From: Schmidtea nova
Lineage: Eukaryota
Direction of reading: 5' to 3'
DNA: 64,000 nucleotides
Assembly: GCA_044892505.1 (NCBI GenBank)
Contig: CM097882.1
Span: forward strand, 394,258,001-394,322,000
Part shown: positions 1,554 through 46,299 of the stretch, piece after piece
Numbering within the stretch: the stretch's first letter is position 1
Layout: each line of letters begins with the position of its first letter
Notes under the pieces: generated by a model
Told to the model about the DNA's origin: nothing
Database searches by the model: none
Seen by the model: the letters and a program-made list of their open reading frames with translations, nothing else
Program-made: the position numbers and the translations under genes

Positions 1554-2596
1554 CAGTGCACTCTCGATTTTCCGGGCTAATCCTGAGGAGGATGGTCACG
1601 GATAATTGAAAAACACGGATAATCAGAATTTATTTTATTTTCGAATATAATATCATATACACAACACAAATTTTTAACACACTATTTTTATATTCATTAT
1701 TTATCAAGAAAACGCAAACAAATAAGTAAAAATATAATATTTTATCATATATACGAACATAAAAATTATATATAAAAAATTATACATTTATATGTACAGA
1801 AATTTAATAAAATCTGTTATTTTCATTAGTTTTTGAGATTTTTTTAACGAATTTCTTATTTCACTTCGAAATATTCTTAAAGCTATTACATTATTATATT
1901 CAGCATTTGAACTGAGACGTCCTCCCTGAATCGTAAGCTGACGAATCCCGTGTCGCTGTTTGAACCTCGTCATCCAGCCTGACGAGGCGTTGAAACTTTC
2001 TTTAATTCCTAGATTCTCATGAAATGTCTTCGCTGCTTCGATGCACATTTGGCCACTAATTGGTATTCCCTCTACTCGTTCTTGATTGAACCACATTAGC
2101 ATGGATGCATCCAAATCTTCGAATGTCGACGTTTTCATACTCTTTCCTTTCGAAGGACCTGCAGAACTATCACAATCTCTAGCAAACGCCTCTAACTTAT
2201 TTTTTTGTTTGACTACATCTCGAACAGTTTGAATACCAATTCCATATTCTTCAGAAAGTTTTGACGTGGATTCTAATTTTTCGAATCTCTCAATTAATGT
2301 AAGTTTCTATTTTATCGTGAGTACAATTTTCTTTCGTTTTTCTGTTAATCATTCTTTCTCCATTTTTAAACGGTACAGATATGTAGAGCTAAAATATGAA
2401 TTTTTGAGATTCTGTGGTTTCTATACGTATTTCTTTCAAACAACGCGCATATTCAAGATCGAAATTAAATAATGCGTCTCATAATCGTAATAGAAAAAAA
2501 TCAATCAAATTAAATTTGAATTAAAAAATATTTATTTTCAGGCACGAATAATCAGAAAACCGGATAATCCATGAACGGATAATCGAGAGTACACTG
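1554..2596 (-). mobile_element. Tigger/pogo-family (Tc1-mariner superfamily) DNA transposon, internally deleted
   Basis: TIRs CAGTGCACTCTCGATTTTCCG / CGGATAATCGAGAGTACACTG flanked by TA on both sides (1552-53, 2597-98); encloses a CENP-B-type HTH transposase remnant. Confidence 0.9.
1788..2363 (-). pseudogene. Tigger/Jerky-like transposase N-terminus (HTH_psq plus CENP-B HTH) with stops; DDE domain missing
   Basis: Manual translation from ATG 2363 (RKKIVLTIK*KL...SKLSEEYGIGIQTVRDVVK) continues into the ORF LDASMLMWFNQERVEGIPISGQM...FNASSGWMTRFKQRHGIRQL. Confidence 0.85.
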
Positions 2597-20352: not shown

Positions 20353-21363
20353 CAAATCCAACATACATCTGTTTACGAAAATTTGTGAATATACAATCCA
20401 TATTAGAACATCAATACATCCGAAATAGTTCTCTTAGTCTGTTTTACTCGAAGAAAATTTAAAAAAGGCCGATTTATTTTGCCTTTTAGACTAAATTTAC
20501 AGATATTTACGATCATAATTGAATAAATATTTGATTTAGATTGGTCAAAATAGTCATATAACCTTGAAACTTTGTATATTTTTGTATATTTTTGTATATT
20601 TAAATCTATATTAGATATATCTATGGTTGAAGAATTGTATAATCGTGACTAAACTGGCTAGATCAACACTGAAATGGCCGTAAAAGCTCTACAAGTATTA
20701 TAACTGAATGTTTTTGAATAAAAATTGAAATTCTAAAAGATTCACTATTCTAATAGCCAGTTTGTATATTTATCAATATTTAGAGTAGTATCAATTTGTG
20801 TTTCCCCTATATTTTACTCTAATTCAGTAACTTTTCTCTTAATGTCTACAAAAGTTATGTTATTATAAACTAAAGAGCCTAAGGTAAAGTAATTTTTGGA
20901 AAGTTCTCTAAAAAATTCTCCAAATTTATAGTTATGGAAATTAAGTTTAATGTTTAGTTCAATATTATTTTCATATTTTCTTTTTATTGATCTGATTTTG
21001 TTGAATAAAACGGATAAAATTTATAATTATTATCGTTATATGTTTCATATAGCCAGGGCCGTAACAAGGGTGGTGCGAGCGGTGCAGTCGCACAGGGCGC
21101 ACACCTTAAAGGGGCGCAAAATTGGGAAGTAAATTTTTTTAATGTTACCAAAAAATAAAAAAATTATCAAATGGCATGCCCGTAAAAGACGACACTCTAG
21201 CTAGCCTATTTTTAACATTACTGGTGTGACTGGTCCATTAGCGTACCTTCGTAGGTGTGTATTTCGGAACGTTTGACAAGTTGATAAAGTGTGTCAATTG
21301 AAATTTATTTTGCATATTCTTTGAACTATGAAAACTGGTTCGCCGCGTCCAGCTCCGATTTGG

Positions 21364-21858
21364 TAATTCTTTATTTTGACGAAGCTTCTTTTCCTCATAG
21401 CTTTTAGTTTCTAACTGTTTTCCACCGACCGCAACAGCTCGACGACCAGCTACAAATCCACTGGGATCGGTTTTGAATAACAGTGGCTTATACATCTCCT
21501 TATCATAAGAAAATGCGATCATTGAACAACCTAATGGCATTATCGCAGCTGATTGAGTGTACAATTGATTAATATCGGCAATACATCGACAAGTCATGTC
21601 ACAGGACATTTCGCATTTAAATCGTGCAGCTTCCATTTGTGCACGGAATACTTGCGATTCGCAATCAGGAATCATTCCGGTCCTAACGCAACCGGTACTT
21701 TCAGTTATGTTAAATAATCTTGTAGCTGAACTCTTTTCATTCATTTTATCTGAGACTTTTCTTTGTGTAGCAACTACGCCACAATCATTATCTCGAACAT
21801 CAACAGAAAGTAATCTATCCAACGCAATCGCTTTAAATGCATAGTCGACCTGAAATAA
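21364..21858 (-). pseudogene. PSMA6: Intronless truncated proteasome alpha-1 (PSMA6) fragment, copy A
   Basis: LFQVDYAFKAI...VRDNDCGVVATQRKVSDK...LFNITESTGCVRTGM...IADINQLYTQ...PLGCSMI...KTDPSG resembles human PSMA6; both termini are missing. Confidence 0.9.
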
Positions 21859-22381
21859 TGCGCCCAAAGACATTTCACTATTCATATTTAAAATTCAAAT
21901 CAACAATTCCAAGTCACGAGGATTGTATTCAATTCCACGAATTACAATTCCAAATTCAAAAAATCCAATCAGTTTCCAATAAATTCCAAACTGCAAAATT
22001 CGAAAAACCAAAAATCACATTAAGCAAAAATTTAAACTTAAAAGTTCCAAATCACGAAACTGAAAATTAAATCCACTCAGCAAAAAATTAAACTCAAAAA
22101 GTCCCCAAAATAAATCAATTAATCCAGTAAAACAACTCTACAAAAATCTTTATTAAATTTTTCAATATGAGAAAATGTTTTTTAATCACTTCCAAAAATT
22201 CGAAAATTCCAATGCATTTACATCAAACAATCCACCAATAAATAAATCCAACTAGCCCAGAAATAAATTCCAATTAATACCGATAAACAAAATAGCCCAG
22301 TTAAACGAATCAATGTCGTTATTAAGTTTTCAAAGAAAAACCAAAATGGATTTATTTTCTTCCAAGATAAAATTCCACCAC

Positions 22382-22442
22382 TCGCGTCTGTGTGCGCACC
22401 CCAATCACAATAGATATAACACCACCGCGCACACAGACGCGA
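22382..22442. other. GC-rich hairpin (16-bp perfect stem, 29-nt loop), cassette A
   Basis: tcgcgtctgtgtgcgc (22382-97) pairs with gcgcacacagacgcga (22427-42). Confidence 0.9.
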
Positions 22443-22640
22443 TGTAATTTGTCTTTCATTGTGATATTAGGCCTGGTTCGGAAATGATATTCACTGGACC
22501 AGCGAGATTGTTTACATGTTTATTAAATGATGATGTTGGAGCTGAAGCTGGTTGACACCGATTTGATCGCATTGAGAATTGAGTAACACCACTGTTTTTT
22601 TCCAAATTTCGTATTATCTTCTTTCCAATCACTCATTTCA

Positions 22641-22683
22641 CATATAAGATTTATATAGATTTCGATAAGTCCGTGTTTACGGC
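22641..22683 (-). other. Full-length planarian spliced-leader exon copy lacking the SL intron (relict SL)
   Basis: Reads GCCGTAAACACGGACTTATCGAAATCTATATAAATCTTATATG; the last 29 nt are identical to S. mediterranea SL1 as I recall it; followed by TGAA-ATG rather than a GT donor. Confidence 0.85.
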
Positions 22684-24289
22684 TTCCAGACTCGCCCTAC
22701 AATCTCTCACAGCAATCAAGCTCCCAATTAATTATTTTAATTTTTATTTAATTAATTTTTAAATACATTATTAAAAGGGCGCGACCAACAACATTATTGA
22801 CGATTTTGCATCATCAAAAGCTCACAAAGTTTATATTAAATAGGTTTGAATAAGCTTGTTATATAATATTTTTTATAAAATCTTACAACTCCATTACTAT
22901 ACCAGCTAGCTGATGATAAAAGTAAAAGTTTCATTTTGTAAAATTTTAGTCCACACTATTGGTTCTTATCATTTTTTCAATTAGCAACAGAATTTTAAGA
23001 GCCGTACTACCTATTACAATAGCCGGAGATGAATACATAGTTAACAATCTTAACATGAACATTATAATTATTATAGTAGGCTGTTTTAAATTCGCGTGCT
23101 GGGGACGCCAGATATGTGAACCGCACAGGGCGCAATAATAAATTGTTACGGCCCTGCATATAGCTAACCAGTTTAAAATGGTAAATCGGTTCTAATGGTG
23201 CGACTTGTTATATTTGATTTGATATTTCATTATTGATAAACCGACAAATTGTAAGTATCCATAAATTCCACAAATTAATAAAACATAAAATTCAAAAACT
23301 TTTCCTAAACAGATAAAAATTACCATAATCTTCATCTCATAATACTTAATAAAAGTAATTACGAATGTTAAAGGAAACATAATTAAGAATTAAGAGTTTT
23401 AAGAGCAAGATAGATAACGCTAAAATGTTTGAAAATTGAGCTTGAAGAAGTATATGATCCATTGTATTGAGTTTCATTTTGAAATGTGATGAAAATCAAG
23501 TTAGGCATTCTTATTATCTTTCTTTTATTTATAGGAAATTGTGTGATTTTCTTTGATTTTAAAGTATATATTGCATGTGTAGAATCAAGTCCAATTTGAT
23601 GACCTTCTAATATCAACGTATCAACTCGGACTCTTCTTATCAATAATTTTGCTATAATATTTTCAACCTGGTGTGGACAATACCGTCTGAAAGTAAAGAT
23701 TTCGGCTGATTCATTAAATCAAATTATAATGATGAACACAAGGTAAAGGCTTTTGAGCCTTTAATCCACTTTTTCCTATTTTCATCGCTATCATAATCCA
23801 TAAGAGTAAGACCCGTATTTTTAGTATTGTAATAATAATTTAAAATAATATTTAGCAATTCCTTGTGAATGTTTGCATTATTAGCACCATCAATTTTTAA
23901 TTATTAAATAGGAGAGTCGCATCTTTAGAAAGCGCATGAAACATGAGGTTGCTTGAAATTGTAGCATCATTATCATTCGATATGGTGCTTGGAGCTTAAA
24001 TCTAGTGTGTCGAAAATTGTGTTGTATGTAAAGATTCAATGCGAGTTACAATACCAATGGATACGTTTGTTTCCATCACTTTAAAAGACAACAATCTGTA
24101 CATATTTTGGTTGCTGAAATACAAAAGGCATACTATGATGACCTTTACAATACAAAGTAATTATTGAAGATTTTTTTAAATAAAGAATTATTTTTGAAAT
24201 ACTTTGTATTTTTTGTTGTTTTTAGAGTTTATATGAGTTTTTTATTGTTGACGATTAAACTCTAAGTAATTTGATGTAAACATTATTGA

Positions 24290-24510: not shown

Positions 24511-25634
24511 AAAATGAAATAATTTTTAAGATTTTGAGAAAACTTTGAAAAAATTAATAATTTTTATAATTTTTGATAAAATTTTGATAAAATTTTGAAA
24601 AATAAAACAAAATAAAAATATTATTTTTTTCAGTATTACATAATCAATTACACAATGTTCAAATAGTATGTAACGAGCAAAGTGATAAATCAATGTTTAC
24701 GTAACACAAATATGTTATGTAATCAATCAAATAATGTATAAAGTAGTACGTAACATATAAAGTATTATGTAACATTAACGTAGAGTTATGAAATATGTAA
24801 AGTTTTACTGAATTGTTACAAGATGGTTACATAATACATATGTTGAGGTTCCCAGAATCTCAACTTTGTATCTTAAATAAATAAATAAGATAACACTGGT
24901 TCGTACTAAATTTTCATTAAATAACAAAATAATAATTACCAAGATAAATCAAAATCAAACAGCTTCTTTCTAATCAAAATTTGTCTGTGTGTAAATGTTT
25001 TATGATTATAATATGTGATGCGTGAATTCTGCTCTGAGTTTGATTTACTGTATGCTCTATTTTAATTTTATAGTCGATAATAACTACAAGATTTTTAATA
25101 GCAGTGATTTTTGGAGTGATTTGAATGAAAAATCAGTCAGTTCATGTACTAAAATTTAGGGCACTTAATCTGTCAATAATGATTGTTATTTTGCTTCTTG
25201 AGTTGATTGAAATTGTTTTGAAAAAAGAATTGTTTTCAAAACAGAATTGTTTTCAAAATTATTTTTTAACCTTTGAATATTATTTTATTTTGCTGACCTT
25301 TGTAGGTCATACATATAATTTATTTAAACAAACATTAATTAATTTATTTTTAATTTATTTAAACAATCTGTATTATTTATTTATTTTATTATTATTATAA
25401 TTTATTGAATTAAAATATTAAAATATAAAAGAAAATATAATCTATTTTCCAAATAGTTTAAAAAATTAATTAACATAAAATATTTTCAAAACAAAATATT
25501 CTTTCAAAATTATATAAAATTTTGTCCGTCATCATAAAAAATGTTAATAAAGAATTTAAAAATTAATTAAATTAAAATTAAAATAATTAATTGGGTGCTT
25601 GATCGCTGTGAGAGATTGTAAGGCGAGCCTGGAA

Positions 25635-25661
25635 GCCGTTAGACGGTCTTATCTAAATCTA
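25635..25661 (+). other. 3'-truncated spliced-leader copy, cassette B
   Basis: GCCGTTAGACGGTCTTATCTAAATCTA matches SL1 nt 1-27 with one mismatch; preceded by the same leader as cassettes A and C. Confidence 0.85.
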
Positions 25662-26029
25662 AAGCTATCAAAAACCAGCCTCACGTCTCAACATTTGAAA
25701 CAGATCTGTATTTCCCTGCATTCTCTAGTTGGATTGAATATTTCTCAAACATCAGTTATCGAGAAATTTCTTGGAATTTCTTGATATTCACATGTTAGAC
25801 TTTCGTGCATTTTACAATTGTCTTTCCACACTAAAAGCCCAAACAAAACTCCGATATTTGGATTTATCACACAATGACCCCGAGAAAATAGACATAGGCA
25901 CGGATTTGGATATTTTATCGTGTCGTTTTCTGAAATCCATTCGTTGATTGGACTTTTCTGGTAATCAAAACAACATTAAAACCAAGACTCTGCTGGGCAT
26001 GTTGAGAAAAGCCAGTGCAAGGACCATCA
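25659..26029 (+). pseudogene. Internal fragment of a leucine-rich-repeat protein gene
   Basis: LKLSKTSL...LVGLNISQT/LEFLDI...LRYLDLSHN...IR*LDFSGNQ; one frameshift and one stop. Confidence 0.7.
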
Positions 26030-26087
26030 CGTCTGTATGCGCGACGGTGATGTTTAATGAGGTTGAATTGGTGTGCGCACACAGACG
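26030..26087. other. GC-rich hairpin, cassette B (homologue of 22382-22442)
   Basis: cgtctgtatgcgc pairs with gcgcacacagacg; 13-bp stem with one mismatch, 32-nt loop. Confidence 0.8.
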
Positions 26088-26419
26088 CGAGTAGTTGAAT
26101 TTGTCGTCGAATTAAAAATAAATTATCGAATTTTTGGAATTAATGTGGAATTTTTGAACTTAATTAAAAACATTTCAGATTTTGTTTAACTGATTTAATT
26201 AATTTAGTTTGGCGGAGTTTTGGATTTAAATGCTTTGGTACAATATGGCTGAATTGCATTGATTTGTTTAACTGGGTTATTGTTGTTTTTTGGATTAATG
26301 TAATTTATGAATTAATGTGTATTTTTGATTTCGGTTTCGTGTACCATTGGAAATAAACTTTGGAATTTGATTTATTGTAATTGACCGTTTTTGATTTAAA
26401 TTAAATGGAATTTCAATTT

Positions 26420-26905
26420 GTCGACTATGCATTTAAAGCGATTGCGTTGGATAGATTACTTTCTGTTGGTGTTCGAGATAATGATTGTGGCGTAGTTGCT
26501 ACACAAAGAAAAGTCCCAGATAAAATGAATGAAAAGAGTTCAGTTACAAGATTATTTAACATAACTGAAAGTACCGGTTGCGTTAGGACCGGAATGATTC
26601 CTGATTGCGAATCGCAAGTATTCCGTGCACAAATGGAAGCTGTACGATTTAAATGCGAAATGTCCTGTGACATGACTTGTCGATGTATTGCCGATATTAA
26701 TCAATTGTACACTCAATCATCTGCGATGATGCCATTAGGTTGTTCAATGATCGCATTTTCTTATGATAAGGAGATGGATAAGCCACTGTTATTCAAAACC
26801 GATCCCAGTGAATTTTTAGCTGGTCATCGAACTGTTGCGCTCGGTGGAAAACAGTTGGAAACTAAAGCTATGAGGAAAAGAAGCTTCGTAAAAATAAAGA
26901 ATTAA
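26420..26905 (+). pseudogene. PSMA6: Intronless truncated PSMA6 fragment, copy B (inverted relative to copy A)
   Basis: Near-identical to copy A; shares the small deletion at FKCEMSCD; 1-bp frameshift near the 3' end. Confidence 0.9.
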
Positions 26906-27121
26906 CGGAAATTAATCGGAGCTGGATGCGGCGAACCACTTAGGAATTTTTATTATTATGATTAAACTCATTTAAGATTGAACTTATGAAAAAATTTTAA
27001 TTTTATAATTACAACATTCCTTTTATCATTATTAAAATTAGAAAAATAGGAAAATCTGATATTGCATACACCAAAGGCATAAATTAGGGCCAAACTATTA
27101 AGGTGTCTATAATTACAATTT

Positions 27122-27627: not shown

Positions 27628-29469
27628 GGCAAAAACTGCAAATTGTTTTAATAAAGCAGTAACCCCATAAGTAGAGAACGCGCAAAATTCAATTTTAACC
27701 CAAACATTCATTGAAAACCAAAGTGATTAAGAGAAAACGTCAAAAAGGTGAAGTGGACTCAAGCACATTAACCAGTAGAGAACGCGCTAGCTGTGAATTT
27801 GCAAGTCCTTACATTGAAATCTCGAAAAAAATTAAAAGTCGTCAAAAGAAGAACGTTTGAAAGTTAGAATAGGCGGAAAACCCATAGAAAATGCCCATAA
27901 AGAACAGAATTTTGTCATAAACCTTCAGTGCAAAAAAAATAACAAAAAAATTTTAGAAGAAAATTGTGATTTTATCACAAAATTTCACATTTAACAATAA
28001 AAAGAACTAATATTGATCGAACTATCGTAAATTAAATCAAATCGAACAAATTTTGATTCAAAAATGAAAATTTTGAATTAAAATAAATTATTTGTGGTTT
28101 ATAAAAAATTATTACACAAAAATATGGATTTAATTTTTCGGAAAATCATTAGAATTATTTTAGAAGAATTAAAAAGAACATTCTAGAACAAATTGTTTTA
28201 CTGCACTAGTGAAGGTAACGCAAAATCGACGGTATATATACCGCCATCAAAATGGCAAGAATCAGAATTTTCGAGAAAAATTTAAGAATTTGGAGAAATT
28301 TTTAGAAAGTTGGAAGAACTTTTTAGAATTTAGAGGAAGAAATTTTAGAAATTTTGAGGAATCTTTAGAAATTTTGAGAAAATTTTAGAGAAAATTTTTA
28401 GAATTTGTGAACTTGTTATTTCGTGGAGAAAATTCTTTAGAGATTTTGGCAGAATTTTTGAATTTCTGAGACAGAGGAAGAAGACACTGATTCCCGGAAG
28501 ACGAAGATAAAAACGAGATTTTAGCAAAGAATTTTCGTTCGAATTTGAAGATTTTCCGGAATTTGCGAACCACTGAAAGAAATGTAAGGATTAATTTTCT
28601 TTTTTTTAACTTGTTTTTTAAGGGGTTTGGGATCGTCGATCATCATGCCTGACGACCATCCCATTCCTCGCGCTTATTAATTGATATGGTGTTTGTTATT
28701 ATTATTTTTAATTAATGCTAACACATTATTATGATATTATTAAAATAAATATTTATTTCATATTTTATTCAATTTAGTTTTAAATTTTTTTTCTTGTTGT
28801 TATTACTATTATCACAAATTTCCAAAATAATTAAAATTTCATATAAGCATTCATCTAAATAAAAATACGAAAAATAAAATTTTTTTTATTATTCCCATAT
28901 CTTCTGACGATTCGTCCAGCCTTGCGTTGTGCGGATTTGTTAGTAGCCTGGGTGGATCGTTGTCTGATTGGTAATCGGCCAGCCCATTTGTCCACTTTAA
29001 GGTGAGGCTCATACATCCATAATCACGTCATCCCAACTGGGGAATCGTGGTATGGCCAAGAGCAAGAAATTTTTATAATAATGATTTTTATTATAATATA
29101 GTAGAATATTCATACTACATTACATAAGCAATTCGTAACATAGCATAAATTCATCCAGCTCATGTCTTGAGATCTAAAATAGGCACTACATTACCAAATA
29201 TAATAGACTCGCACTCACCTTCGCCTTCACGGAAACTTTTCCGGCTTATTAGAATTCATTATATGTGAAATCAGAAATCAATAAAAATTGCTCAAACGAA
29301 AACCATTTATTGAATAATGAACTAGGTAAAGGAGCGACGAATTGTTGATTGAAAGATTATTGGTCGCGCCCGCTCTTAAAATATTTTAGGATTATTAAAT
29401 AATAATTAAAATAATTAATGGGGTGCTTGAACGCTGTGAGAGATTGTAGGGCGAGCCTGGAAGCCGAAA

Positions 29470-29497
29470 GCCGTTAGACGGTCTTATCGAAATCTAT
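29470..29497 (+). other. 3'-truncated spliced-leader copy, cassette C
   Basis: GCCGTTAGACGGTCTTATCGAAATCTAT matches SL1 nt 1-28 exactly as I recall it; preceded by a duplicated AAGCCG. Confidence 0.88.
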
Positions 29498-29498
29498 C

Positions 29499-29577
29499 TC
29501 ATTCATAACCTGTTCTTACAAAGAAGTTCGCCTAGAAGCTGTCATAACCTGCGCTAAATTACTTACGCCTTCGCTTG
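29499..29577 (+). pseudogene. MTOR: Short mTOR HEAT-repeat fragment
   Basis: SFITCSYKEVRLEAVITCAKLLTPSL resembles human FLNSEHKEIRMEAARTCSRLLTPSI. Confidence 0.7.
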
Positions 29578-29621
29578 GCGCCAATGAAGATGAAGGATCA
29601 TACTCTGACAGAAACACGCTA

Positions 29622-29795
29622 ACCGATAAGCTTGTTGGTAATAGAACTCGTGCAATTCTTCTTCAGTTTCTTCCATTAATATTTCTGAGTTCTATAAAAG
29701 ACAGTCCGGAGACATTTGCTCGTCTCTGTGACAGCCGACATGAGAGTCCTGAGCTCATTTGGAATGAGGATACTGGACAGTGTTTGTCTGCAGTG
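29622..29795 (+). pseudogene. DNAJC13: Internal DNAJC13/RME-8 fragment, in frame with the mTOR fragment
   Basis: TDKLVGNRTRAILLQFLPLIFLSSIKDSPETFARLCDSRHESPELIWNEDT resembles human [51 protein letters not shown]. Confidence 0.8.
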
Positions 29796-30585
29796 TTCTT
29801 TGAGGGAAAGTCCGCATATTTTGGGGATGGGAAAGGTGATGCATCGAGAAAGTGTGCGAACATGCGAGTATGTGTGCATTCGACGTCGGAAATAGGAGCG
29901 CAGTCTTTGCGAGTATTGCGGGAATTTGGACACTTCTTGAATTGAACAGCTCACAAGCACGTTTATTGAAAGAAAGGTGGCAGCTAAATAAATTCTATGT
30001 TCTTTCTGGAAAAGCGACTGATTGAATGAATAATAAAGTTCATAAGAACTAAAAATGTAATCTTTCAAAGATATACATTTGGTGATATATATGAGCATAT
30101 TAAATTGATGTTGTAATTTTTGTTTGTGTTTTTCGTTACGCTTTGAGTCTATATTGATTTGATTTATTAATAATAATTGGCAAGTTGCAAATTATATATT
30201 TATGTCCCGGTATGTAATGATTGATGGGTTCTACTTTTTATTATTGAGTGTAAAGTTAATATGTTGGATTTAATGATAGATTGATTTCTATGATACGATT
30301 TTTCTACTATTATTTGCCAAAAAGGACTTTTGAATTTAAAACTTAATTTATTATTTTGGGTAGACTTTGAATTAATTTTGAATTAATTTAGAATTAATTT
30401 AATTATGAATTTATGTGTTGTTTATTTAAATTAGTTTAATGTTGGAAAACTTAATTTTTTGAATTGTTATTTTTATTTTAGCTGAATAACTGTATGAATG
30501 ATGGTATCGTGGATATATTTGAATTGAATGTTTTTGTTATGAGCTTTTTTGGGATTTCTAGAGTGGAAGTTTTTCGGTCAAATTA

Positions 30586-31209
30586 ATGGTTGATTATAAT
30601 TATGTTATGAATGTTAATGAGGAAATTCGAAATGATGAATTGAATGAATTCATAGTCGAAGTGGATATTACGTCTTCGTTTGGAGTTCAAGAGAAGATAT
30701 TGAATGGTGGTGAGAGAATGGTTGCATCAATTCAATGGCCAACTCTGATTGAAATAACGAATTCATTGAATCAAAATGTGTGGAAAGATAAAAACATATT
30801 AATGTATAAAGCGAACAAGAGTGATATTATATATGGCTTACGTAGAATAAATGTTCCCAATGAATATGTGCACCAAGTTGTAAAACGAACATTTTCTGTA
30901 TTGAATAATAATAGTTGTGAAATATATGTTTCATCGCCATTATCGCTCAGCTGTAATCTGAAACAAGATCTCAATGATGTTTTCCCGATAATTCGATGCT
31001 TATTTGTTGGTGGAATTTCAAATTCGAACTTAAAATTGCTTGAGCCGCCAAATCTTTTGGTTGGATTACCGACACAAATATTGACTTACTGTGCATTACA
31101 CGGGTTGAATGTAATTATCAATGCTGCTTATTTTGTTATGGAAACGAATAAAGATTATATGGCCGTTCAATCGATGATTTTACAATTATTATTTTTTATG
31201 AATTTTTAG
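30586..31209 (+). CDS. PSMG1: Proteasome assembly chaperone 1 (PAC1)-like ORF, 207 aa, intronless; captured copy or genuine gene is unresolved
   Basis: LKLLEPPNLLVGLPTQILTYCALHGLNVII resembles human PLLEQPNIVHDLPAAVLSYCQVWKIPAIL; sits after the G/T-rich spacer like the other second cargos. Confidence 0.65.
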   Translation: MVDYNYVMNVNEEIRNDELNEFIVEVDITSSFGVQEKILNGGERMVASIQWPTLIEITNSLNQNVWKDKNILMYKANKSDIIYGLRRINVPNEYVHQVVKRTFSVLNNNSCEIYVSSPLSLSCNLKQDLNDVFPIIRCLFVGGISNSNLKLLEPPNLLVGLPTQILTYCALHGLNVIINAAYFVMETNKDYMAVQSMILQLLFFMNF

Positions 31210-35462: not shown

Positions 35463-36056
35463 TGTAGGAATGCTAAAAGCAAATAAGATTTTATTAATAG
35501 AAATTGATCTCCAATTGACAAGTTGGTCTTTGGCAACCGGAAATCCTGACCGATGATAACAAGAGTTGAAATGAGCAAGCTCCATGACAGTCCGTATTGA
35601 TTGATTTCTGGTGATGGCGAATAATCGTTTAATCGAGATTGATTGTGATCCAATGTATTGATTTGTAGATTTTTTGAGTTATACATTTCAGATTTGTCTG
35701 GATAGTATATTAATATTGATCCAGTTGATGACAAGCATCTTCCAGTTTGTACGGCTTCTTTACGCATTCCAGCAGCGAAACATTTCTGCAATCTACGGAA
35801 CTGGCAATTGTTTCTTCTTTGAATATCGACTACACAATCTCCACTAGAGTAGAACTGATAATTGTTGTCATTTGATGAAAACGAGTCGCTGTGAATGTCT
35901 TGAGTGAATTGGCATATCGAATCATTGTTAACAGCTTGCATTTTTTTTGATCAGCGTGAAAAAGTGAAAATATATAAATATTAAAACAACATCTAATTTA
36001 ATCTATTTAATAATTAATTAATTTATAAAATTGGAAATTTAATCTAAGGCACTACA
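35463..36056 (-). repeat. 3' LTR (594 bp) containing a nuclear-receptor fragment
   Basis: tgtagtgcc...ttcctaca; three differences from the 5' LTR found by eye. Confidence 0.93.
35464..35941 (-). pseudogene. Nuclear hormone receptor fragment inside the 3' LTR (second zinc finger/T-box, hinge, start of LBD)
   Basis: CVVDIQRRNNCQFRRLQKCFAAGMRKEAVQ and LSIGDQFLLIKSY. Confidence 0.88.
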
Positions 36057-36120
36057 ATAGCCCCCGCCGAAGTACGCGGAGCGTCTCTAAGCTACAAAAT
36101 GGATTTGGGTGTTGGGTGAG

Positions 36121-38295
36121 TCACTGAAGGTGATAATCGGAGAGATATTGAGGGAGTTTACGTGTTCGCCTAGAAGAGAATGGCGGGTTGTCTTGAGAAA
36201 GTTGGGTATTTGTCTTTTCTGTAAGGATCTTCAGTTGTGCTGTGTCTTCTTGAATGTCTTCATCTATAGGATCTTCTTTCATGATATGGTAATTTGGTCG
36301 TTCATCATACTCAAGTGTGCAAAAGGATGGTTTTAATCTTGATAGGTTGACCATAATGTGATTGTTATCAATTTCTAGTTTCGCTGTGTTTTTGTATAGT
36401 TCGATGATGCGAAATGGGCCTTTGTATCTAGGTTTGAGGTTTGATGAGTCAATTGTCTTCATCCATGCGTGGGTGGCAGATGAAAGTGATTGTGGTATAT
36501 ACGGTTTGTATGATGTAGAATATGTGAAAGATGGATTTGTATCAAGACTCAAAAAATGATTGCGAGTGAGGTTGATTTCCTCTAGTGACGATTCGTTCTG
36601 TAGATCTATGAGTTCGTTGGGCATGGATGTGTTGGAACCGAACAAAAGTTGTGAAGGTGACACGCCACTTGAGCGGTTGGGAGTGTTGTGCCACCCGAGC
36701 AAGACGAATGGTAATGCTTTGGTCCACGAAGTTGTCGTTGAGAGTATTCTGAGAGATGATTTCAAAGTCCGGAGGGCGCGTTCCACAAGACCGTTTGTTT
36801 GTGGGTGATATGAGCTGGTACGTAAATGACTGATGCCGAGGCTGGTGGTCAGATGATCGAAAAGGTCTGATTCAAATTGTGTTCCTTGGTCTGTGATTAT
36901 GGCGGTTGGGATTCCATAACACGAAAACCAAGTGGATATTAAGGCGTGTGCAACCGTTTTTGCGGTGATGTCAGAAACTGGAATAGCCTCGAACCAGCGT
37001 GTTTTCCTATCGATCATTGTCAGTATATAGCAGAATCCATCGTATGAGGGGAGTTTGCCTACTAGGTCGATGTGGAGTATGTCGAATCTTGAACCAGTCG
37101 GGAATGGTGTGATTGGTGGTTTAGTATGTTTGTTCACTTTGTGTTGTTGGCAGCCTGTACATTCAGAGAGCCACTGTTTAACGTCTTTAAATAATGAGAA
37201 CCAAGTGACCTTTTGTCGTATGAGATGGTATGTGGACTTAATTCCTGGATGGTGTAGATTATGAATCGCGAAGAATGCTTCTTTCCTGAGTGACGAGTGC
37301 AAAATTGGTCTAAGAGTGTTTTTATACGTTGTGTCATAATGTATACCGTCTATTATCTCAAGCGAGTCTTTGAAGCGGGCGAGGTCAGCTGTCGTTGATG
37401 GAGTCGAACGGAGAATTTGTTGGGTGAAAACCGGTGTAGAGGTAATTGATGCAGCAATGTTTCTAGTAAGATAATCGGCGACCACATTATCTTTGCCCGA
37501 AACGTGAACAAATTTAATGTCAAAAGTTGATAGGTATGTTATCTGACGATGTACTCTGTTCGATGGGTCTTTCATGGTAAGGCAGTGGATGAGAGGTTTG
37601 TGGTCGGTGAAGATTGTAAATTGTCTTCCTTCTAAAATGTGACTAAAATGTTTGACTGCTAGAAAAATGGCAAGTAATTCTCTGTCGAATGCGCTGTACT
37701 TTGACTCTGCTAATGAAAATTTTCTCGAAAAAAATTCTATTGGTAGTGAGATTTTATCCATAATTTGGTGAAGGACTGCGCCTGCAGCAATATTTGATGC
37801 GTCAGTTGTCAGGGTGAATGGGAGGTCGTGACATGGGTAGTGAAGAGTGGTAATCTTGGTTAGAGCGTCTTTGACTTTGTTGAATGAGTCGCGTGTTGTG
37901 TCGGACCAATTGATGACGGAATTCTTTTTTCCTGTGTTCAGTGCTGAAAGAGGTGCTGTTATGTGAGATGCGTTTTTAATGAATCTATGGCAGAAGTTGA
38001 CGATGCCTAAAAAGCTACGTAGTTGTGTCACGGTGGTTGGCAGGGGAAAGCTGCGGATTACGTCAAGTCTTTCGGGGAAAGGTTCACAACCAGTAGATGA
38101 AAGTATATGGCCAAGGAATCTGACGCGTTCTTGAAACAAGCTACATTTGTTTACGTTTATCTGTAAGTTGTGACGGTTCAATATATCAAGGACCGTGTGT
38201 AAATCGTTTTTGTGGCTGTCTCGATCCGGGGACGCTATGATGATATCGTCAAGGTATGCGAAAGTGTTAGGGACATCGCGAAAAATTGTGTCCAT
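36121..38295 (-). CDS. Gypsy pol 3' part: RT C-terminal half (YLDD), RNase H, integrase (HHCC, DDE, GPF)
   Basis: FAYLDDIIIAS, TTDASNIAAGAVL, HHPGIK...CTGCQ, HIDLVG, ITDQGTQF, PQTNGLVER, RYKGPFRI. Confidence 0.95.
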   Translation of the reverse strand: MDTIFRDVPNTFAYLDDIIIASPDRDSHKNDLHTVLDILNRHNLQINVNKCSLFQERVRFLGHILSSTGCEPFPERLDVIRSFPLPTTVTQLRSFLGIVNFCHRFIKNASHITAPLSALNTGKKNSVINWSDTTRDSFNKVKDALTKITTLHYPCHDLPFTLTTDASNIAAGAVLHQIMDKISLPIEFFSRKFSLAESKYSAFDRELLAIFLAVKHFSHILEGRQFTIFTDHKPLIHCLTMKDPSNRVHRQITYLSTFDIKFVHVSGKDNVVADYLTRNIAASITSTPVFTQQILRSTPSTTADLARFKDSLEIIDGIHYDTTYKNTLRPILHSSLRKEAFFAIHNLHHPGIKSTYHLIRQKVTWFSLFKDVKQWLSECTGCQQHKVNKHTKPPITPFPTGSRFDILHIDLVGKLPSYDGFCYILTMIDRKTRWFEAIPVSDITAKTVAHALISTWFSCYGIPTAIITDQGTQFESDLFDHLTTSLGISHLRTSSYHPQTNGLVERALRTLKSSLRILSTTTSWTKALPFVLLGWHNTPNRSSGVSPSQLLFGSNTSMPNELIDLQNESSLEEINLTRNHFLSLDTNPSFTYSTSYKPYIPQSLSSATHAWMKTIDSSNLKPRYKGPFRIIELYKNTAKLEIDNNHIMVNLSRLKPSFCTLEYDERPNYHIMKEDPIDEDIQEDTAQLKILTEKTNTQLSQDNPPFSSRRTRKLPQYLSDYHLQ

Positions 38296-39340
38296 GAAAC
38301 ATTGTAATCACTGAGCTGCGTTTCTAAGACCAAAAGGCATGAACATGTATTCAAAATTCCCAAATGGTGTAGTGACAGCCGTTTTGTGGACGTCGTCCGT
38401 ATGGATGGGAAATTGGTGGTATGCTTTCGAGAGGTCTATAGTTGAGAACACTGTAGATTGTGAAAAGCGTGTTATTAAATCTCTAATGAGTGCATTGGGT
38501 AAGCGTCGTGGACTGTTACTTGGTTGAGCTGTCGATAATCTCCACAGGGTCTGAATGATCCGTCTTTTTTTGTTACTACGTGTATTGGCGAAGCCCATGG
38601 TGAAGATGAACGACGTAAAATGCCTACGTTTTCTAGACTGACAAATTCAGCTTTGACTGCGTCGAGTTTCGTGGAAGAGAGAGGTCTGGCTCGATTGTGT
38701 TGTGGTATGCATGGTAATGTGTGAATCTAGGGAGTCGATAGGGTAGTGGGTGGTATGGTATCGGATTTAGTGATGAGGTTTGGATATTTGATTGAAATTA
38801 ATTTGATCATGTCATCGATGGTATCTAGATTGGCTGATTGGTCGATGTCCAAAGTGGTTTTATCGTTTTCCATCGTAGAATCTTGATGAATCGAGTTGAG
38901 TTGTGTCGGTGTAGATGTCTGCGTTGAAATTGATGTTACATTTGACGATGAAATTGTCGGTATATTGGCATTGTCGTGTTTTACAGTGAACAACTTACGA
39001 TTTTTGCAATCTACCATGATGGATTCGTTGCTTAAAAAATCGGAGCCTAATATTGGGTGGATCGTGTCTGCTATGTGGAAGGTGTGAGTGAAAGTTGAGT
39101 TTAATGTTGGTATTGTGAATGAGAGTTTATTTGTTCCCAAAAATTGGATCGGTGTGCTGTTAGCGGCCAAGACAGTGAACGAAGATTTGAAGTCTGGTGT
39201 GAAAGTTGTTGGAAGGATTGAAAATGACGAGCCCGAATCTACGAGAAAATGAATTGATGAGCTGGAGTCGAAGTTTGCTTCAACAGTGAAGATATTGTTG
39301 ATCGCAAGGACGCTGCCTGAAAATCCAGGGTTGACAGACA
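38296..39340 (-). pseudogene. Gypsy protease and RT N-terminal half, frameshifted
   Basis: IHFLVDSGSSFSIL (protease); FSTIDLSKAYHQFPIH...KTAVTTPFGNFEYMFMPFGLRNAAQ; stops and frame changes relative to the pol ORF. Confidence 0.85.
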
Positions 39341-39483
39341 GCGGCGCTAGTTTTTTTTGGGAGAATTGAAATTGTTTTTGTCGTATGATTTATTTGAGGA
39401 ACGGTTTACAAAAGTGCAACCTGAAAGGCATTTTTGTGCGTGTATACCGAAGATATTGTGATAGATGCAAATAGGAATGATCC

Positions 39484-40312
39484 TCAAAGTGGAAGAGTGT
39501 TTAGCCATGAACATCCTATATGGCATGTTCTTGCGTCGGATGAGAATTTCCTGTGAAAAAAACAAGTCAGAGTGGGAAATGAATTCGGTTTATCGTTTCT
39601 TTGGGTGTGTGTAGTTACCTGAGAGGAGTTGAGTATCGCGTCGACTGTTTTTGTCAGAGAAGATATCTGTTCCTGTAATGAAGGGTCGGAAACTGATGCG
39701 ATGGTAGTTGGTGCGTTTCGGATGGGGGGTCGAGTAACCAACTTATCAGCAATTTTTGCAAGTTGAAAAGGATCATCGGAATCGACAACGAGGAGTGAGG
39801 TCTGGATGTGATATGGAAGAGCTGTTAAAAATTGATGGCATAGGAGAGCAGTGTTTTTTGATAAACCGGTGTGGACGGCCTCGAGTTCGCGTACTAGTTG
39901 AGATAAAAAGGATGATGGGGGTTGACCGGCGTATGGGGTGGGTTTTGATAACTTTTCGATCGCTGAAGTGCGCGTGGGTGAATATTTTTTTTATGACCGC
40001 TTTGATTGATTCATAAGGGGTTTCTGAGTTTAATGCGTCAGCTATTTGTGAGCCTAATTCTGACATTAACTCGTCGGGTATTGCATATAGCAGAAGATCT
40101 TGCCTAGACTTGGGATTGGCTCTAGTGCGCGATTCAAAAATGCGGAACCAAGATGATGGTGTGCCGTCTGCGTCTAAAAATATCAGTTGAGTGCGACCTA
40201 TGGACGTGGGAGGGTTATGGTCATTGTTAGTTTTGGCACCGCCTCTTGCCGCATGAAGAGATTTATTATTGCGTTTGTTGGGACTGAAAGAGGATCTGTG
40301 ATGGGAACTCCG
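39484..40312 (-). pseudogene. Gypsy gag, frameshifted
   Basis: PSSWFRIFES, TPYESIKAVI and CFFHRKFSSDARTC motifs, same Gag family as the 15.8-kb remnant. Confidence 0.8.
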
Positions 40313-40630
40313 TTATTTAAAATAAAGAAGTCGTTGTGTTCTATTAAAAAAAACGTTTAATATCGTTAAAAAGTTTGTCGTGGTAATTTTAACTGTGTGA
40401 ATAATAGTTTTGTGGCGTACAGTGATGTTGAGTAAGCCGTCATGAAGGGTAAATGGTTGTGAACAGGTAGGGGAAACTGTTGTAGTTTTGGTTATAGGAC
40501 TATGAAAATTATTATTAAAATAATTATTAAAATTTTTATTGAGTATATTATTAAAATTATTATTAATATAAATGAAGTAATTAGATGAATTTAAATATTC
40601 ACATAATAAATTCAAAAATCTTACGTTTGT

Positions 40631-40644
40631 CACTTCTGACACCA
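40631..40644 (-). promoter_or_regulatory. Primer-binding site TGGTGTCAGAAGTG (tRNA-Leu type)
   Basis: Begins 2 nt after the CA end of the 5' LTR. Confidence 0.85.
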
Positions 40645-40646
40645 AT

Positions 40647-41240
40647 TGTAGGAATGCTAAAAGCAAATAAGATTTTATTAATAGAAATTGATCTCCAATT
40701 GACAAGTTGGTCTTTGGCAACCAGAAATCCTGACCGATGATAACAAGAGTTGAAATGAGCAAGCTCCATGACAGTCCGTATTGATTGATTTCTGGTGATG
40801 GCGAATAATCGTTTAATCGAGATTGATTGTGATCCAATGTATTGATTTGTAGATTTTTTGAGTTATACATTTCAGATTTGTCTGGATAGTATATTAATAT
40901 TGATCCAGTTGATGACAAGCATCTTCCAGTTTGTACGGCTTCTTTACGCATTCCAGCAGCGAAACATTTCTGCAATCTACGGAACTGGCAATTGTTTCTT
41001 CTTTGAATATCGACGACACAATCTCCACTAGAGTAGAACTGATAATTGTTGTCATTTGATGAAAACGAGTCGCTGTGAATGTCTTGAGTGAATTGGCATA
41101 TCGAATCATTGTTAACAGCTTGCATTTTTTTTGATCAGCGTGAAAAAGTGAAAATATGTAAATATTAAAACAACATCTAATTTAATCTATTTAATAATTA
41201 ATTAATTTATAAAATTGGAAATTTAATCTAAGGCACTACA
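40647..41240 (-). repeat. 5' LTR (594 bp) containing the same nuclear-receptor fragment (40648-41125)
   Basis: TG...CA ends; same length as the 3' LTR; TSD immediately outside. Confidence 0.93.
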
Positions 41241-42222: not shown

Positions 42223-42859
42223 GTGAGAGAATGTTTTGAATTTCTCAATTATCTTAAAATACAAATATATATTTCGAAATTACAGCGAGCGATAGATGAC
42301 AAAAATAAACGATATCAATTAGAATAAAGTTCTTTAGTTTAATTATTTTTTAATTCTTCTATCGTCTTAATCAAATTACTTTTAAGTTACGATATTTTAT
42401 ATTACTTGCTTAAAATGCTGAAAATATTAAGTACTTTATAAAATACTCACTTCATTCTATTTTAGTTTTTCTTTCCGTAATTTAAAGACTTTTTGACATC
42501 GTATTTAAATTCTTGATTTCCTCATGAACCTCTTATTACGTGTTTTTGTTAACAAATACTGTAATAGATGCCTTTTTGGTATGTGTTTAATGATAAATAC
42601 TTTGAATTTCTTCAGAAACGGATTCCAAATTTCCGCCAATCTTAAATATTTTAGAGATTAGCACAAACACTTTGAGTGCATAAGTTGGTATGGTTTTGGT
42701 GATGGTCACCATATTAGAAGATTCATAAACCATACAAGTTAGTAGAGTAGGGGGAGCGCCCAAGAACAGGAACAGACCCCCCCTCCCCCCTCCCCCCACC
42801 CCCCCCCAAAATTTTTTTTAATTTTTAATTTTGTTTAAATGAAGTGAATTTTTTAATTT

Positions 42860-44030
42860 TGATTTTTTGTTTAAATGAAGTCAATTTAATTTTATTATTT
42901 TGTTTAAATGAAGACTTTATTTATTTTTATTTTTATTTTTATTTTTTTTTATTTATTTTTATTTATTTTTATTAATTTTTATTTTTATTTATTTTTATTA
43001 ATTTATTTTTAATAATTTATATGTATTAATTTATTTTTATTAATTTTTATTAATTTATTTTTATTAATTTATTTTTAATTTATTTTTTAATAATTTATTT
43101 GTATTAATTTATTTTTATTAATTTATTTTTATTAATTTATTTGTATTAATTTTTATTAATTTATTTTTAATTTATTTTTAATTTATTTTTATTAATTTAT
43201 TTGTATTAATTTATTTTTATTAATTTATTTTTAATTTATTTTTAATAATTTATATGTATTAATTTATTTTTATTAATTTTTATTAATTTATTTTTATTAA
43301 TTTATTTTTTAATAATTTATTTGTATTAATTTATTTGTATTAATTTATTTGTATTAATTTATTTTTATTAATTTATTTGTATTAATTTTTATTAATTTAT
43401 TTTTATTAATTTATTTTTAATAATTTATTTGTATTAATTTATTTGTATTAATTTATTTTTATTAATTTATTTTTATTAATTTATTTTTTAATAATTTATT
43501 TGTATTAATTTATTTTTATTAATTTATTTTTAATTTATTTTTAATAATTTATATGTATTAATTTATTTTTAATTTATTTTTTAATAATTTATTTGTATTA
43601 ATTTATTTGTATTAATTTATTTTTATTAATTTATTTGTATTAATTTATTTTTATTAATTTATTTGTATTAATTTTTATTAATTAATTTTTATTAATTTAT
43701 TTTTAATAATTTATTTGTATTAATTTATTTGTATTAATTTATTTTTATTAATTTATTTTTATTAATTTATTTTTTAATAATTTATTTGTATTAATTTATT
43801 TTTATTAATTTATTTTTAATTTATTTTTAATAATTTATATGTATTAATTTATTTTTAATTTATTTTTTAATAATTTATTTGTATTAATTTATTTGTATTA
43901 ATTTATTTTTATTAATTTATTTTTTAATAATTTATTTGTATTAATTTATTTTTATTAATTTATTTTTATTAATTTTTATTAATTTATTTTAATTATTTAT
44001 TTTAATTTTTATTTAAATAATTTTAATTTT
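42860..44030. repeat. AT-rich 11-12-bp minisatellite (tattaatttat-ttg/ttt); mirrored at about 54520-55640
   Basis: Direct reading. Confidence 0.9.
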
Positions 44031-44039
44031 TTGATCTGG

Positions 44040-45240
44040 TTATTTTTGTAAAGGATTTTTACTCTGGTAATTTTGTATAGGAATTTCTACTCCGAGATTT
44101 TCTATGGCAAAAAGGGACTCTGGATTTTTTGTACAGGGAATTTTTATACATGAAATTTTGGACTGGTATTTTTGTATAGGATTTTGGTCTGGTTATTTTG
44201 AATAGGATTTTCAACTCCCATATTTTTCTAGGGCAAAAATAGACTCTGGTAATTTTGAACTAAATTTTTTATGGTAAATAAAAACACGTGTAAATTTTTT
44301 AAACTATTAAAATACATTGAAATTATTTTGAATAGGATTTTCAACTCCCATATTTTTCTCGGGCAAAAAGGGACTCTGGTAATTTTGAACTGAAATTTTA
44401 ATGGTAAATAAAAAACACGTGTAAATTTTTTAAACAAGTAAATTATCATTAAAGTATTTTGTATAAGATTTTCAACTCCCAGATATTTTCTAGGGCAAAA
44501 AAGGGACTCTGGTAATTTTGAACTAAATTTTTTATGGTAAATAAAAACACGTGTAAATTTTTAAACTATTAAAATACATTGAAATTATTTTGAATAGGAT
44601 TTTCAACTCCCATATTTTTCTAGAGCAAAAATAGACTCTGATAATTTTGAACTGTAATTTTAATGGTAAATAAAAAACACGTGTAAATTTTTTAAACTAG
44701 TAAAATACATTGAAATTATTTTGAATAGGATTTTCAATTCCCAGATTTTTCTTCAGGCAAAAATAGACTCTGGTAATTTTGAATATGATTTTTAGTCTGG
44801 TATTTTTGAAAATAATATTTTGGTCGGCGAAAATCAAAAAATTAAAAAGTGGTCAGAATTCAATAATTTTTATACCAATCTACTGAGAATTGAATGGGGA
44901 ACAAAAAAGGTTCAAAAAGTAAAAACATGAAATTTTGACTTTTCCGACCCAATTTTACACGTAAAAAGGGTCAACTCGGAGAATTTCCAAAAAATCAAAA
45001 ATGCTCAGAATCAAATAATTTTTATACCAATCTACTGAGAATCGAATGGCGAACAAAAAAGGTTCAAAAAGTAAAAACATGAAATTTTGACTTTTCCGAT
45101 CCAATTTTTACACGTAAAAAGAGTCAACTCGGGGAAATTCCAAAAATTAAAAAGTTGTCAGAATTCAATAATTTTTATACCAATCTACTGAGAATTGAAT
45201 GGTGAACAAAAAAGGTCAAAAAATTAAAATCATGAAAAAC
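44040..45240. repeat. Tandem arrays of about 131-bp (about 5 copies) and about 152-bp (3 copies) units; mirrored at about 53310-54510
   Basis: ggattttcaactccca recurs about every 131 bp; ataccaatctactgaga recurs at 44872, 45024 and 45177. Confidence 0.88.
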
Positions 45241-46010
45241 CAAAATTTTATACGTAAAATTACAGTCTCAGTAAAAAAGGGTAAAATATATAAAAACGTG
45301 GAAATATTTAAAATAAAAATTTTTAAACTAAATAATTAAATCTAAATAAATTTATGATAATTAAATAAAAAAGTAAATAAATTCTATACGAATTTCAAAA
45401 CTCAATAAATAATTCACTCATTATTTTGTATTTAATTTATCAAGTAAAATGGTACATTAAATAAAAGCATGGAAATAATAAGTAAATTAAACTTAGAATT
45501 TAAAAATAATTTGTACTGGATTTATGAAAAATATCAAAGTAAATAAATTAAAGATAGAATTTTAAAAATAATTATGAATTTAATGATAAATAGAAATATA
45601 AGTAAATTAAGAATAAAAAAGTAAATTAAGAAAGACGTGAGTTTTAATGTCATAATTTAAAAAAGAATTGCTTTTAAAGGAACTGTTTAAGGTAATATTT
45701 GAAAAATGTGAGAATAATTAATTATTTTTGAAATTTTTTAAAGTAAAATTTATTAACAATAAGGTCAATGTAGAATTTTTTAGCAATAAAATCAATGAAA
45801 ATTTTTTAATTAATAAATACAAATCTAATTGTTTTTCAATATGATGTTTTTTAAGGAAATGATCAAATGTAGTAAATAAAACACATGTAAATATTGAATT
45901 TATTTAGAATAAAAATAGTTATTAAACAAGAGTTTTTACAATTTTGTATACTAAGTTAAAAAAAAAATATCAATTAATGACATAAATTTTTAAAAATAAA
46001 CGTAATAATT

Positions 46011-46147
46011 NNNNNNNNNNNNNNNNNNNNNNNNNNNNNNNNNNNNNNNNNNNNNNNNNNNNNNNNNNNNNNNNNNNNNNNNNNNNNNNNNNNNNNNNNN
46101 NNNNNNNNNNNNNNNNNNNNNNNNNNNNNNNNNNNNNNNNNNNNNNN
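46011..46147. other. 137-N gap, mirrored by a 137-N gap at 52405-52541
   Basis: N runs at symmetric positions. Confidence 0.99.
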
Positions 46148-46299
46148 CTAAGTACCAGCAATAAACCGATCAAATAACTAATAATCTCATTACACACACA
46201 AATAAACCACTGACTAGTAACTGATCAAATGCCAACTGACTCTATCCACAAATCAACAATCGACTAGTTACTTACAAGTTACCAACTGATTCTATATAT

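Follow-up and report, generated by a model that had tools for sequence, protein, structure and literature searches.

A spliced leader joined to host mRNA sequence inside a Bel/Pao long terminal repeat of Schmidtea nova

The DNA analysed here (the window) is a stretch of 64,000 nt from contig CM097882.1 of Schmidtea nova, in which a 43-nt leader ending AAATCTTATATG lies on the minus strand (22683-22641) and is followed by TGAA and ATG AGT GAT TGG AAA GAA, with the ATG at 22636. The original prediction had read this as a complete spliced leader (SL) exon joined to an mRNA-like 5' end, with no GT donor and no Sm site behind it. The junction and both absences were found as described, and the leader is full-length, although its 5' end has diverged from that of the true type-1 SL gene. 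The extent assigned to the feature, 22443-22745, was too short: it belongs to a 1,452-bp long terminal repeat (LTR), which we call cassette A. The LTR, its surroundings and two related cassettes are laid out as follows.

21054..23156, no strand assigned: MITE that hosts the LTR insertion, hAT-like, with CAGGGCCG ends and the 8-bp target site duplication (TSD) GCTATATG; empty copies measure 647-685 bp
21331..21335, minus: downstream TSD copy, GTTTT, one mismatch
21336..22787, minus: cassette A, solo LTR of the Bel/Pao family, 1,452 bp, TG...CA ends; same termini in other copies
21336..21885, minus: open frame with its ATG at 21885, proteasome alpha-subunit fragment (Pfam PF00227, E=5e-25)
21886..22350, minus: T/G-rich spacer, putatively outron- or U5-like; median T+G 0.65 over 79 LTRs
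22383..22441, minus: GC-rich hairpin, family-conserved, then AATAAA at 22356-22351; motif in 79 distinct LTRs
22447..22472, minus: 26-nt remnant of gene Y from an earlier cargo; parent L239, sister LTRs L049 and L051
22461..22470, minus: 10-nt microhomology CTAATATCAC, common to gene Y and, only after removal of intron 2, to gene X
22471..22640, minus: 5' end of the gene X mRNA from its trans-splice acceptor; 63 nt are deleted internally, between two GGT; ATG at 22636
22641..22683, minus: type-1 spliced leader copy without GT donor; 39/42 matches and one insertion against SL gene L054
22684..22787, minus: conserved LTR head (U3-like), 104 nt, common to all 30 loci
22788..22792, minus: upstream TSD copy, GTTGT; empty MITE copies have one GTTGT in 10/11
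25544..26938, plus: cassette B, second LTR of the family, 5'-truncated, with a partial leader and a different cargo
29361..31184, plus: cassette C, third solo LTR, TSD ATTAT, with a partial leader and an internal acceptor, TTTTAG followed by CTGAATAA (first exon base 30482)

The cassette A junction sits 104 nt inside the LTR, and LTR termini of the cassette A type recur in full elements, where they are followed by a primer-binding site (PBS) or preceded by a polypurine tract (PPT). The region of the hairpin (22450-22361) folds at -43.1 kcal/mol, and a poly(A)-signal test on the AATAAA returned 29, 25 and 7 of 79 LTRs. The 3' part of cassette A is 95% identical to cassette B over 523 nt, and its proteasome-fragment frame is the one that enters ubiquitin-Gag in full elements. 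We take the surrounding MITE to be hAT-like from its 8-bp TSD and its terminal motif.

The leader was compared with the true SL genes of the genome (G000). A pattern of leader tail plus donor occurs at five places, comprising three SL RNA genes (L054-L056) and two LTR copies. The three genes consist of the leader, GTACGG, a U-rich Sm-like site and stem-loops, and the second leader type likewise has true SL genes (L227 and L228); this type-2 leader may match the published SL3, and the cassette A leader is taken to be of the freshwater-planarian type (42 nt, ending ATG). Every difference between the cassette A leader and L054 falls within the first 14 nt, and the last 29 nt are identical. Cassette A has no GT donor, Sm-like site or SL-gene flanks, and the DNA upstream of all five SL genes is unlike the LTR head that precedes its leader. 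The prediction would have failed had the SL RNA gene itself continued with the cargo sequence; the true genes continue with GTACGG and have a different upstream region. The 104-nt head was also considered as an SL gene promoter and was ruled out, since the SL genes have different upstream DNA. A 54-nt pattern of LTR plus leader gave 70 exact matches in the genome as opposed to 0 for its reversed control, so the arrangement is not due to chance. With 142 leader-bearing LTR heads against five SL genes seen, SL matches in such genomes are mostly not SL genes. One further LTR head (L184, plus strand) carries a possible third leader type, ending AAATTTATG.

These comparisons bear on a reading in which the cassette was captured at the DNA level by the surrounding hAT-like MITE (Pack-TIR) or is a variant SL RNA gene. 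The cassette is indeed enclosed by terminal inverted repeats, and an 8-bp TSD is present; however, 11 other copies of the MITE have no LTR insert and a single target site, and real SL genes have a GT, an Sm-like site and different flanks. We therefore regard both versions as refuted by the empty MITE copies and by SL gene anatomy, with practically no chance of being correct.

A genome search using the leader together with the sequence preceding it returned 1,981 first-look candidates, a figure that is not a copy number, of which 40 were scored. At 30 of the 30 loci examined, a head of about 104-105 nt and the leader are common and the sequences then diverge, and most of these loci rejoin at the hairpin, the T/G-rich tract, the proteasome fragment and a common end. 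Among solo LTRs with both ends in view, 16 of 20 have a TSD matching at four or five of five positions; outside microsatellites, a TSD was found in 10 of 11 solos, as against a shuffle mean of 1.0 and a maximum of 5. A (TTA)n/(TAA)n microsatellite surrounds 14 of 38 solo or 5' LTRs, and at L007 two LTRs stand head to head. The common form of the LTR end plus PBS occurs at 68 exact sites, and a pattern modelled on L006 matched nowhere in the same search because the L006 copy is a variant. Over its 18 nt the PBS is complementary to tRNA-Met(CAT) of this genome (3' end plus CCA), placing the family among those primed by initiator tRNA, and a purine tract precedes the 3' LTRs. No tRNA gene lies in the 64-kb window; a tandem tRNA-Met(CAT) array with a 458-bp period was seen elsewhere (L331, G000:C1:510.09-510.13 Mb), and the 3' motif of its genes has 1,034 exact matches genome-wide.

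Young copies have LTR pairs that are 99-100% alike. One of them (L294+L295; LTRs 99.8% alike, TSD ATGAC) contains a single frame of 2,572 codons with ubiquitin, DUF1759, CCHC, protease, RT, Peptidase_A17, an integrase zinc finger and DUF5641; L234+L235 has a similar autonomous-type domain set in two overlapping frames, and L290+L291 and L292+L293 resemble autonomous-type members in size. The internal region of autonomous-type members is about 6 kb, while that of non-autonomous members is mostly 2.8-3.7 kb and holds HSP90 and ubiquitin fragments and a coiled coil, with DUF1759 in L179. The family thus has the TG...CA termini and short TSD of Bel/Pao elements, a tRNA PBS with a polypurine tract and, in full-length relatives of the solo LTR cassette A, the order Gag(CCHC)-PR-RT-RH-IN with DUF1759, Peptidase_A17 and DUF5641. 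Judged from sequence comparison, with the family placement taken from Pfam domains, cassette A is almost certainly a Bel/Pao solo LTR with processed cargo. A protein search with the HSP90-ubiquitin-Gag region was uninformative on other species, all matches listed (at least 120) containing polyubiquitins.

The prediction described a cargo of about 200 nt from a single parent and took it for the reverse-transcribed 5' end of a trans-spliced mRNA. The cargo search gave 16 matches, spread over 11 loci; at three of these loci only the last 33 nt match. A parental locus for the main part, gene X, does exist (L045/L195), and it has a polypyrimidine tract and an AG exactly at the leader join, reading ...TTTTTCCAAATTAAG and then TGAAATG at precisely the junction base (G000:C2:415828952). 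The RNA origin of the cargo and the expected AG acceptor were thereby borne out. The single parent was not, as the cargo is a mosaic: gene X contributes about 170 nt, interrupted by a 63-nt deletion, and gene Y a remnant of 26 nt. Nor is the fixed mRNA end a stand-alone copy; it occupies one slot of a many-copy LTR with many cargos. Identity to the gene X parent (L195:2952-3252) is 94.5% in exon 1 and 88.7% in exon 2. In cassette A the frame of MSDWKEDNTKFG (MSDWK) follows that of the parent for 11 residues only and is 37 codons long before it meets a stop. Gene X had no significant Pfam match in four frames, and in the Atlas it scored 0.83 at best and 0.82 against RING-like clusters, short of the trust level of that tool.

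The parent L045/L195 has four GT-AG introns of 53, 52, 55 and 4,267 nt. Seven leader-bearing LTR copies, cassette A included, carry gene X cargo with five different 3' junctions. All four parental introns, including the 4.3-kb one, are absent from the sister copy L046, and intron 1 is absent from L044, L047 and L048. Intron loss is demonstrated by these sister copies, because in cassette A the intron-1 junction falls within the 63-nt deletion, which is common to cassette A and two sister copies, and the intron-2 junction overlaps the gene Y remnant. In the gene Y parent (L239), the sequence runs through the 26 nt and an AG stands at the gene's own leader junction, while the whole gene Y cargo is present in the sister LTRs L049 and L051. 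A parental AG exactly at the leader junction was thus found for both genes checked. The 10 nt of CTAATATCAC are contiguous in gene X only without intron 2, which points to an RNA template at this one junction. Cassette A records a serial cargo swap at a 10-nt microhomology found only in the spliced parent mRNA. Loss of four introns in L046 together with microhomology at the switch point in cassette A (one junction) are the features of LTR-mediated retrocopies.

A leader at a true acceptor and introns lost in sister copies would also be seen in a stand-alone processed pseudogene, either a LINE-type retrocopy or a leader relic of the dinoflagellate style, that lies here by chance. However, the cDNA is 3'-truncated and has neither a poly(A) tail nor a TSD of its own, the same 104-nt head precedes the leader at all 30 loci, and it is the entire 1,452-bp unit that the TSD encloses. 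This origin is largely refuted by the PBS- and PPT-flanked copies, and we consider it extremely improbable.

Sampling of 156 distinct LTR heads yielded 107 with the type-1 leader, 35 with the type-2 leader and 14 that are truncated or too diverged; the ratio of 107:35 is not a frequency, because the types were partly sought with separate patterns. Behind the 142 full leaders lie 76 cargo clusters, 46 of them singletons, clustered approximately on the first 60 nt only. As observations on cargo content, the L155 5' LTR holds a near full-length TDP-43-like mRNA (TDP-43_N and RRM matches) behind a type-2 leader, and the L090 cargo is a Sec7/BIG1 DCB fragment. One cargo was seen with both leader types (seven copies and one). 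The presence of two host leader types in the LTRs, and of one cargo with both, indicates that the 3' part of the leader travels with the mRNA. Exact junctions at host AG acceptors would likewise arise if the element RNA were itself the SL donor, its LTR-encoded leader being trans-spliced onto host pre-mRNAs and the chimera reverse transcribed, and GTAC does follow the leader in L053. Nevertheless, a GT directly follows the leader in only 6 of the 142 LTR heads, the LTR copies inspected show no tail with an Sm site, and the leaders match two different host SL genes, with one cargo behind both; a donor role is thus very doubtful.

The 5' part of the leader behaves differently from the 3' part. 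Type-1 copies that had been collected without bias as to the leader (n=49) share variants at leader nt 8 across 10 cargo clusters and at nt 13 across 7, and their mismatch to the SL gene is 8.5% at nt 1-19 as opposed to 3.9% at nt 20-42. This pattern, which unassembled SL gene variants could mimic, suggests that the 5' part travels with the element and that the crossover lies inside the leader. Leader variants of the LTR heads cluster at nt 5-8, the loop of the first hairpin, and stem positions vary little; the structure of nt 1-13 may be under selection, or it may mark a pause of the reverse transcriptase (RT).

Thirteen LTR pairs have the same cargo in both LTRs, and all are near-identical pairs; in these concordant pairs the cargo appears to have been fixed before integration. 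Ten of them are biased to young copies because they were found by exact patterns. Among two-LTR elements found without bias through the PBS, five of eight have different cargos (L090, L149, L155, L168 and L172). The flanks are compatible in L090 and L172, and two of the five discordant pairs are interrupted by later insertions. Such discordance favours conversion after integration, in which mRNA cDNAs or other LTR copies would recombine into resident LTRs, with the leader as 5' homology and a microhomology as 3' homology, and retrotransposition would only amplify the product. L172 fits this account, its LTR heads being 99% identical over 113 nt between near-matching flanks (GACTT/GGCTT) while the rest of the LTRs differ. 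On the other hand, the LTRs of discordant pairs are also unlike in their 3' slot or head subtype, as expected of inter-element recombinants, cargo is shared in all 13 near-identical pairs, and the described route of LTR capture, in the available text of PMC5131818, is microhomology-guided switching. We consider conversion an unlikely source of the cargos.

Cassette C bears on how a leader came to stand in an LTR. Its acceptor AG is kept in 26 of 26 unspliced copies of its type, and a leader is joined exactly at the same acceptor base in other copies, type-1 in L323, L328 and L329 and type-2 in L233, which is 91.6% identical to cassette C from the acceptor to the LTR end. L230-L232 have the first eight bases of the cassette C exon start and then differ. 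Because both leader types are thus found joined precisely to the internal AG of a sister LTR subfamily, the element RNA was probably trans-spliced at an AG inside the LTR and then reverse transcribed. The cassette C acceptor could itself be the acceptor of a host gene; no host parent of its exon is among the 30 loci examined, and internal acceptors were found in the cassette C type only, 1 of 76 clusters.

At the other end of the LTR, the 3' part is open for at least 100 codons in the ubiquitin-Gag frame in 31 of 64 LTRs, compared with 0 and 3 in the other frames, and cassette A has 186 open codons with the proteasome fragment in this frame. The LTR thus has two slots, a free one behind the leader and one in frame ahead of the PBS. 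Ubiquitin ends just before the Gag-side sequence with RLRGG in L179 and L090, RLRGD in L177 and RLCGG in L232; given the RLRGG ends, host deubiquitinases could release Gag from a variable N-terminal mosaic.

With the identity of the LTR, the tRNA-Met primer site, the autonomous members, the processed cargo at true acceptors (parents checked for 2 of 76 cargo clusters), the two leader types and the serial replacement established, we propose that cargo is exchanged under guidance of the leader during reverse transcription, and we consider this account likely. The SL would serve as a universal homology: RT would jump to a co-packaged SL-bearing mRNA, copy it to the cap and return through the SL. 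First, tRNA-Met would prime minus-strand DNA and the 3' part of the 5' LTR would be copied. RT would then use a microhomology to switch to a trans-spliced host mRNA packaged in the same particle, which it would copy up to the capped leader. For the transfer of this new end, the element RNA would offer only the leader copy at its 3' end; the product would comprise the head, the leader, a new mRNA end and the remains of older cargo. Second-strand synthesis would put the cargo into both LTRs, and integration would create the 5-bp TSD, with later LTR-LTR recombination leaving a solo LTR. In its simple form this model predicts identical LTRs, so the five discordant pairs among eight would additionally require an intermolecular second transfer or later conversion.

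The leader probably entered the LTR, and was kept there, because the element RNA itself is trans-spliced at acceptors inside the LTR; the stretch from leader to acceptor would then be a dispensable outron tolerating any cargo. If so, the leader would be an obligatory passage of replication, and any host mRNA that is trans-spliced and present in the particle would be a ready donor. To the following joint reading we would give an even chance: the SL would act as the working repeat (R) for first-strand transfer, the RNA would be trans-spliced within the LTR, the element would be a running exchanger of mRNA heads, the LTRs would archive the trans-spliced transcriptome, and the 3' part of each LTR would be a second slot, used for exon shuffling in frame and uncoupled from Gag by the ubiquitin spacer. 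The leader-plus-host-mRNA junction inside a Bel/Pao LTR, with dozens of different cargos, is a real finding, and it links SL trans-splicing and LTR reverse transcription, which are usually studied apart. A universal mRNA 5' tag inside the LTR would make the rare event of microhomology capture routine (76 cargos in 142 sampled copies). From the LTRs one could read off the trans-splice sites and the choice of leader in heritable cell lineages and, if the joint reading is true, the archive would cover the cells in which the family is active, including which leader each gene received.

Comparisons with known systems refer here to the accessible portions of the cited reports. LTR-mediated retroposition by template switching has been described in metazoans by Tan et al. 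2016 (PMC5131818), with one mosquito case involving BEL18_AG; as there, microhomologies mark the joins between processed pieces of host mRNA and an LTR element, mosaics of several genes occur and further rounds of retroposition follow. In those retrocopies, however, the cargo replaces internal ORFs between the LTRs through two microhomology switches, whereas here it lies inside both LTRs and always starts from the leader junction, the 5' switch uses a fixed universal homology of 42 nt, and one family holds 76 cargos in 142 copies. As in the dinoflagellate relic leaders (DinoRL; PMC12014239), reverse-transcribed mRNAs are marked by the trans-spliced leader in DNA form; those accessible sections describe retrogenes with no element identified, whereas here the leader is a fixed LTR part and the cargos are mostly 3'-truncated. 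SL sequence inside mobile elements of flatworms was also reported for parasitic species (PMC12582326), in which 597 discarded partial-leader loci lie at LTR/LINE elements and trans-spliced element transcripts were suggested as the source; the leaders there are partial, and the text available describes no anatomy, host cargo or strand-transfer role. The present family thus provides a concrete element and a route for DNA-encoded leader relics whose maker is unnamed in the dinoflagellate and parasitic-flatworm reports, as far as their accessible text goes (PMC12014239, PMC12582326).

An LTR retrotransposon RNA that is given a spliced leader, as predicted here, is known from Cer1 of C. elegans, whose RNA receives SL1 (PMC3315495). 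Unlike the present family, Cer1 is a Gypsy element in which only the spliced 2.4-kb RNA is trans-spliced, with no leader in the LTR and no host cargo described in the sections at hand. Burro (PMC6431247) is likewise a planarian LTR element with a polyprotein containing host-like domains, including a ubiquitin/SUMO-like one, but by the available account it is Gypsy-like with an internal region of up to 25 kb, as opposed to Bel/Pao with about 6 kb (3-3.7 kb in non-autonomous members) and a leader in the LTR; identity with Burro was rejected on both its Gypsy-like nature and its internal size. In Echinococcus, a solo LTR is cis-spliced to a trans-splice acceptor, according to the accessible part of PMC4558846. 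The consulted portions of two planarian genome papers (PMC10899757 and PMC11410931), a transposon paper (PMC8532177) and an SL-finding paper (PMC7346339) mention no leaders in LTRs, and full-text searches found no account of an LTR that carries a leader and swaps the heads of host mRNAs; supplementary repeat libraries, Repbase or Dfam may already hold the family.

Other mobile sequences were observed in the window. A Gypsy-type element on the minus strand (35463-41240; 594-bp LTRs 99.5% alike, RT/RH/IN) has a frame overlapping its LTR with a nuclear-receptor C4 zinc finger (PF00105, E=1.4e-7), making it the second family here whose LTR contains a host fragment. A giant nested palindrome at 42741-55813, with 3,594-nt arms that are 100% complementary, a central perfect hairpin of 597 nt and AT-rich 14-mer arrays, may be a real foldback element or an assembly artefact. 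A frame at 1788-2306 (minus strand) resembles what we take to be a piece of a pogo/Tigger-type transposase, and a hAT transposase remnant (PF05699) lies at 61631-62744 on the minus strand.
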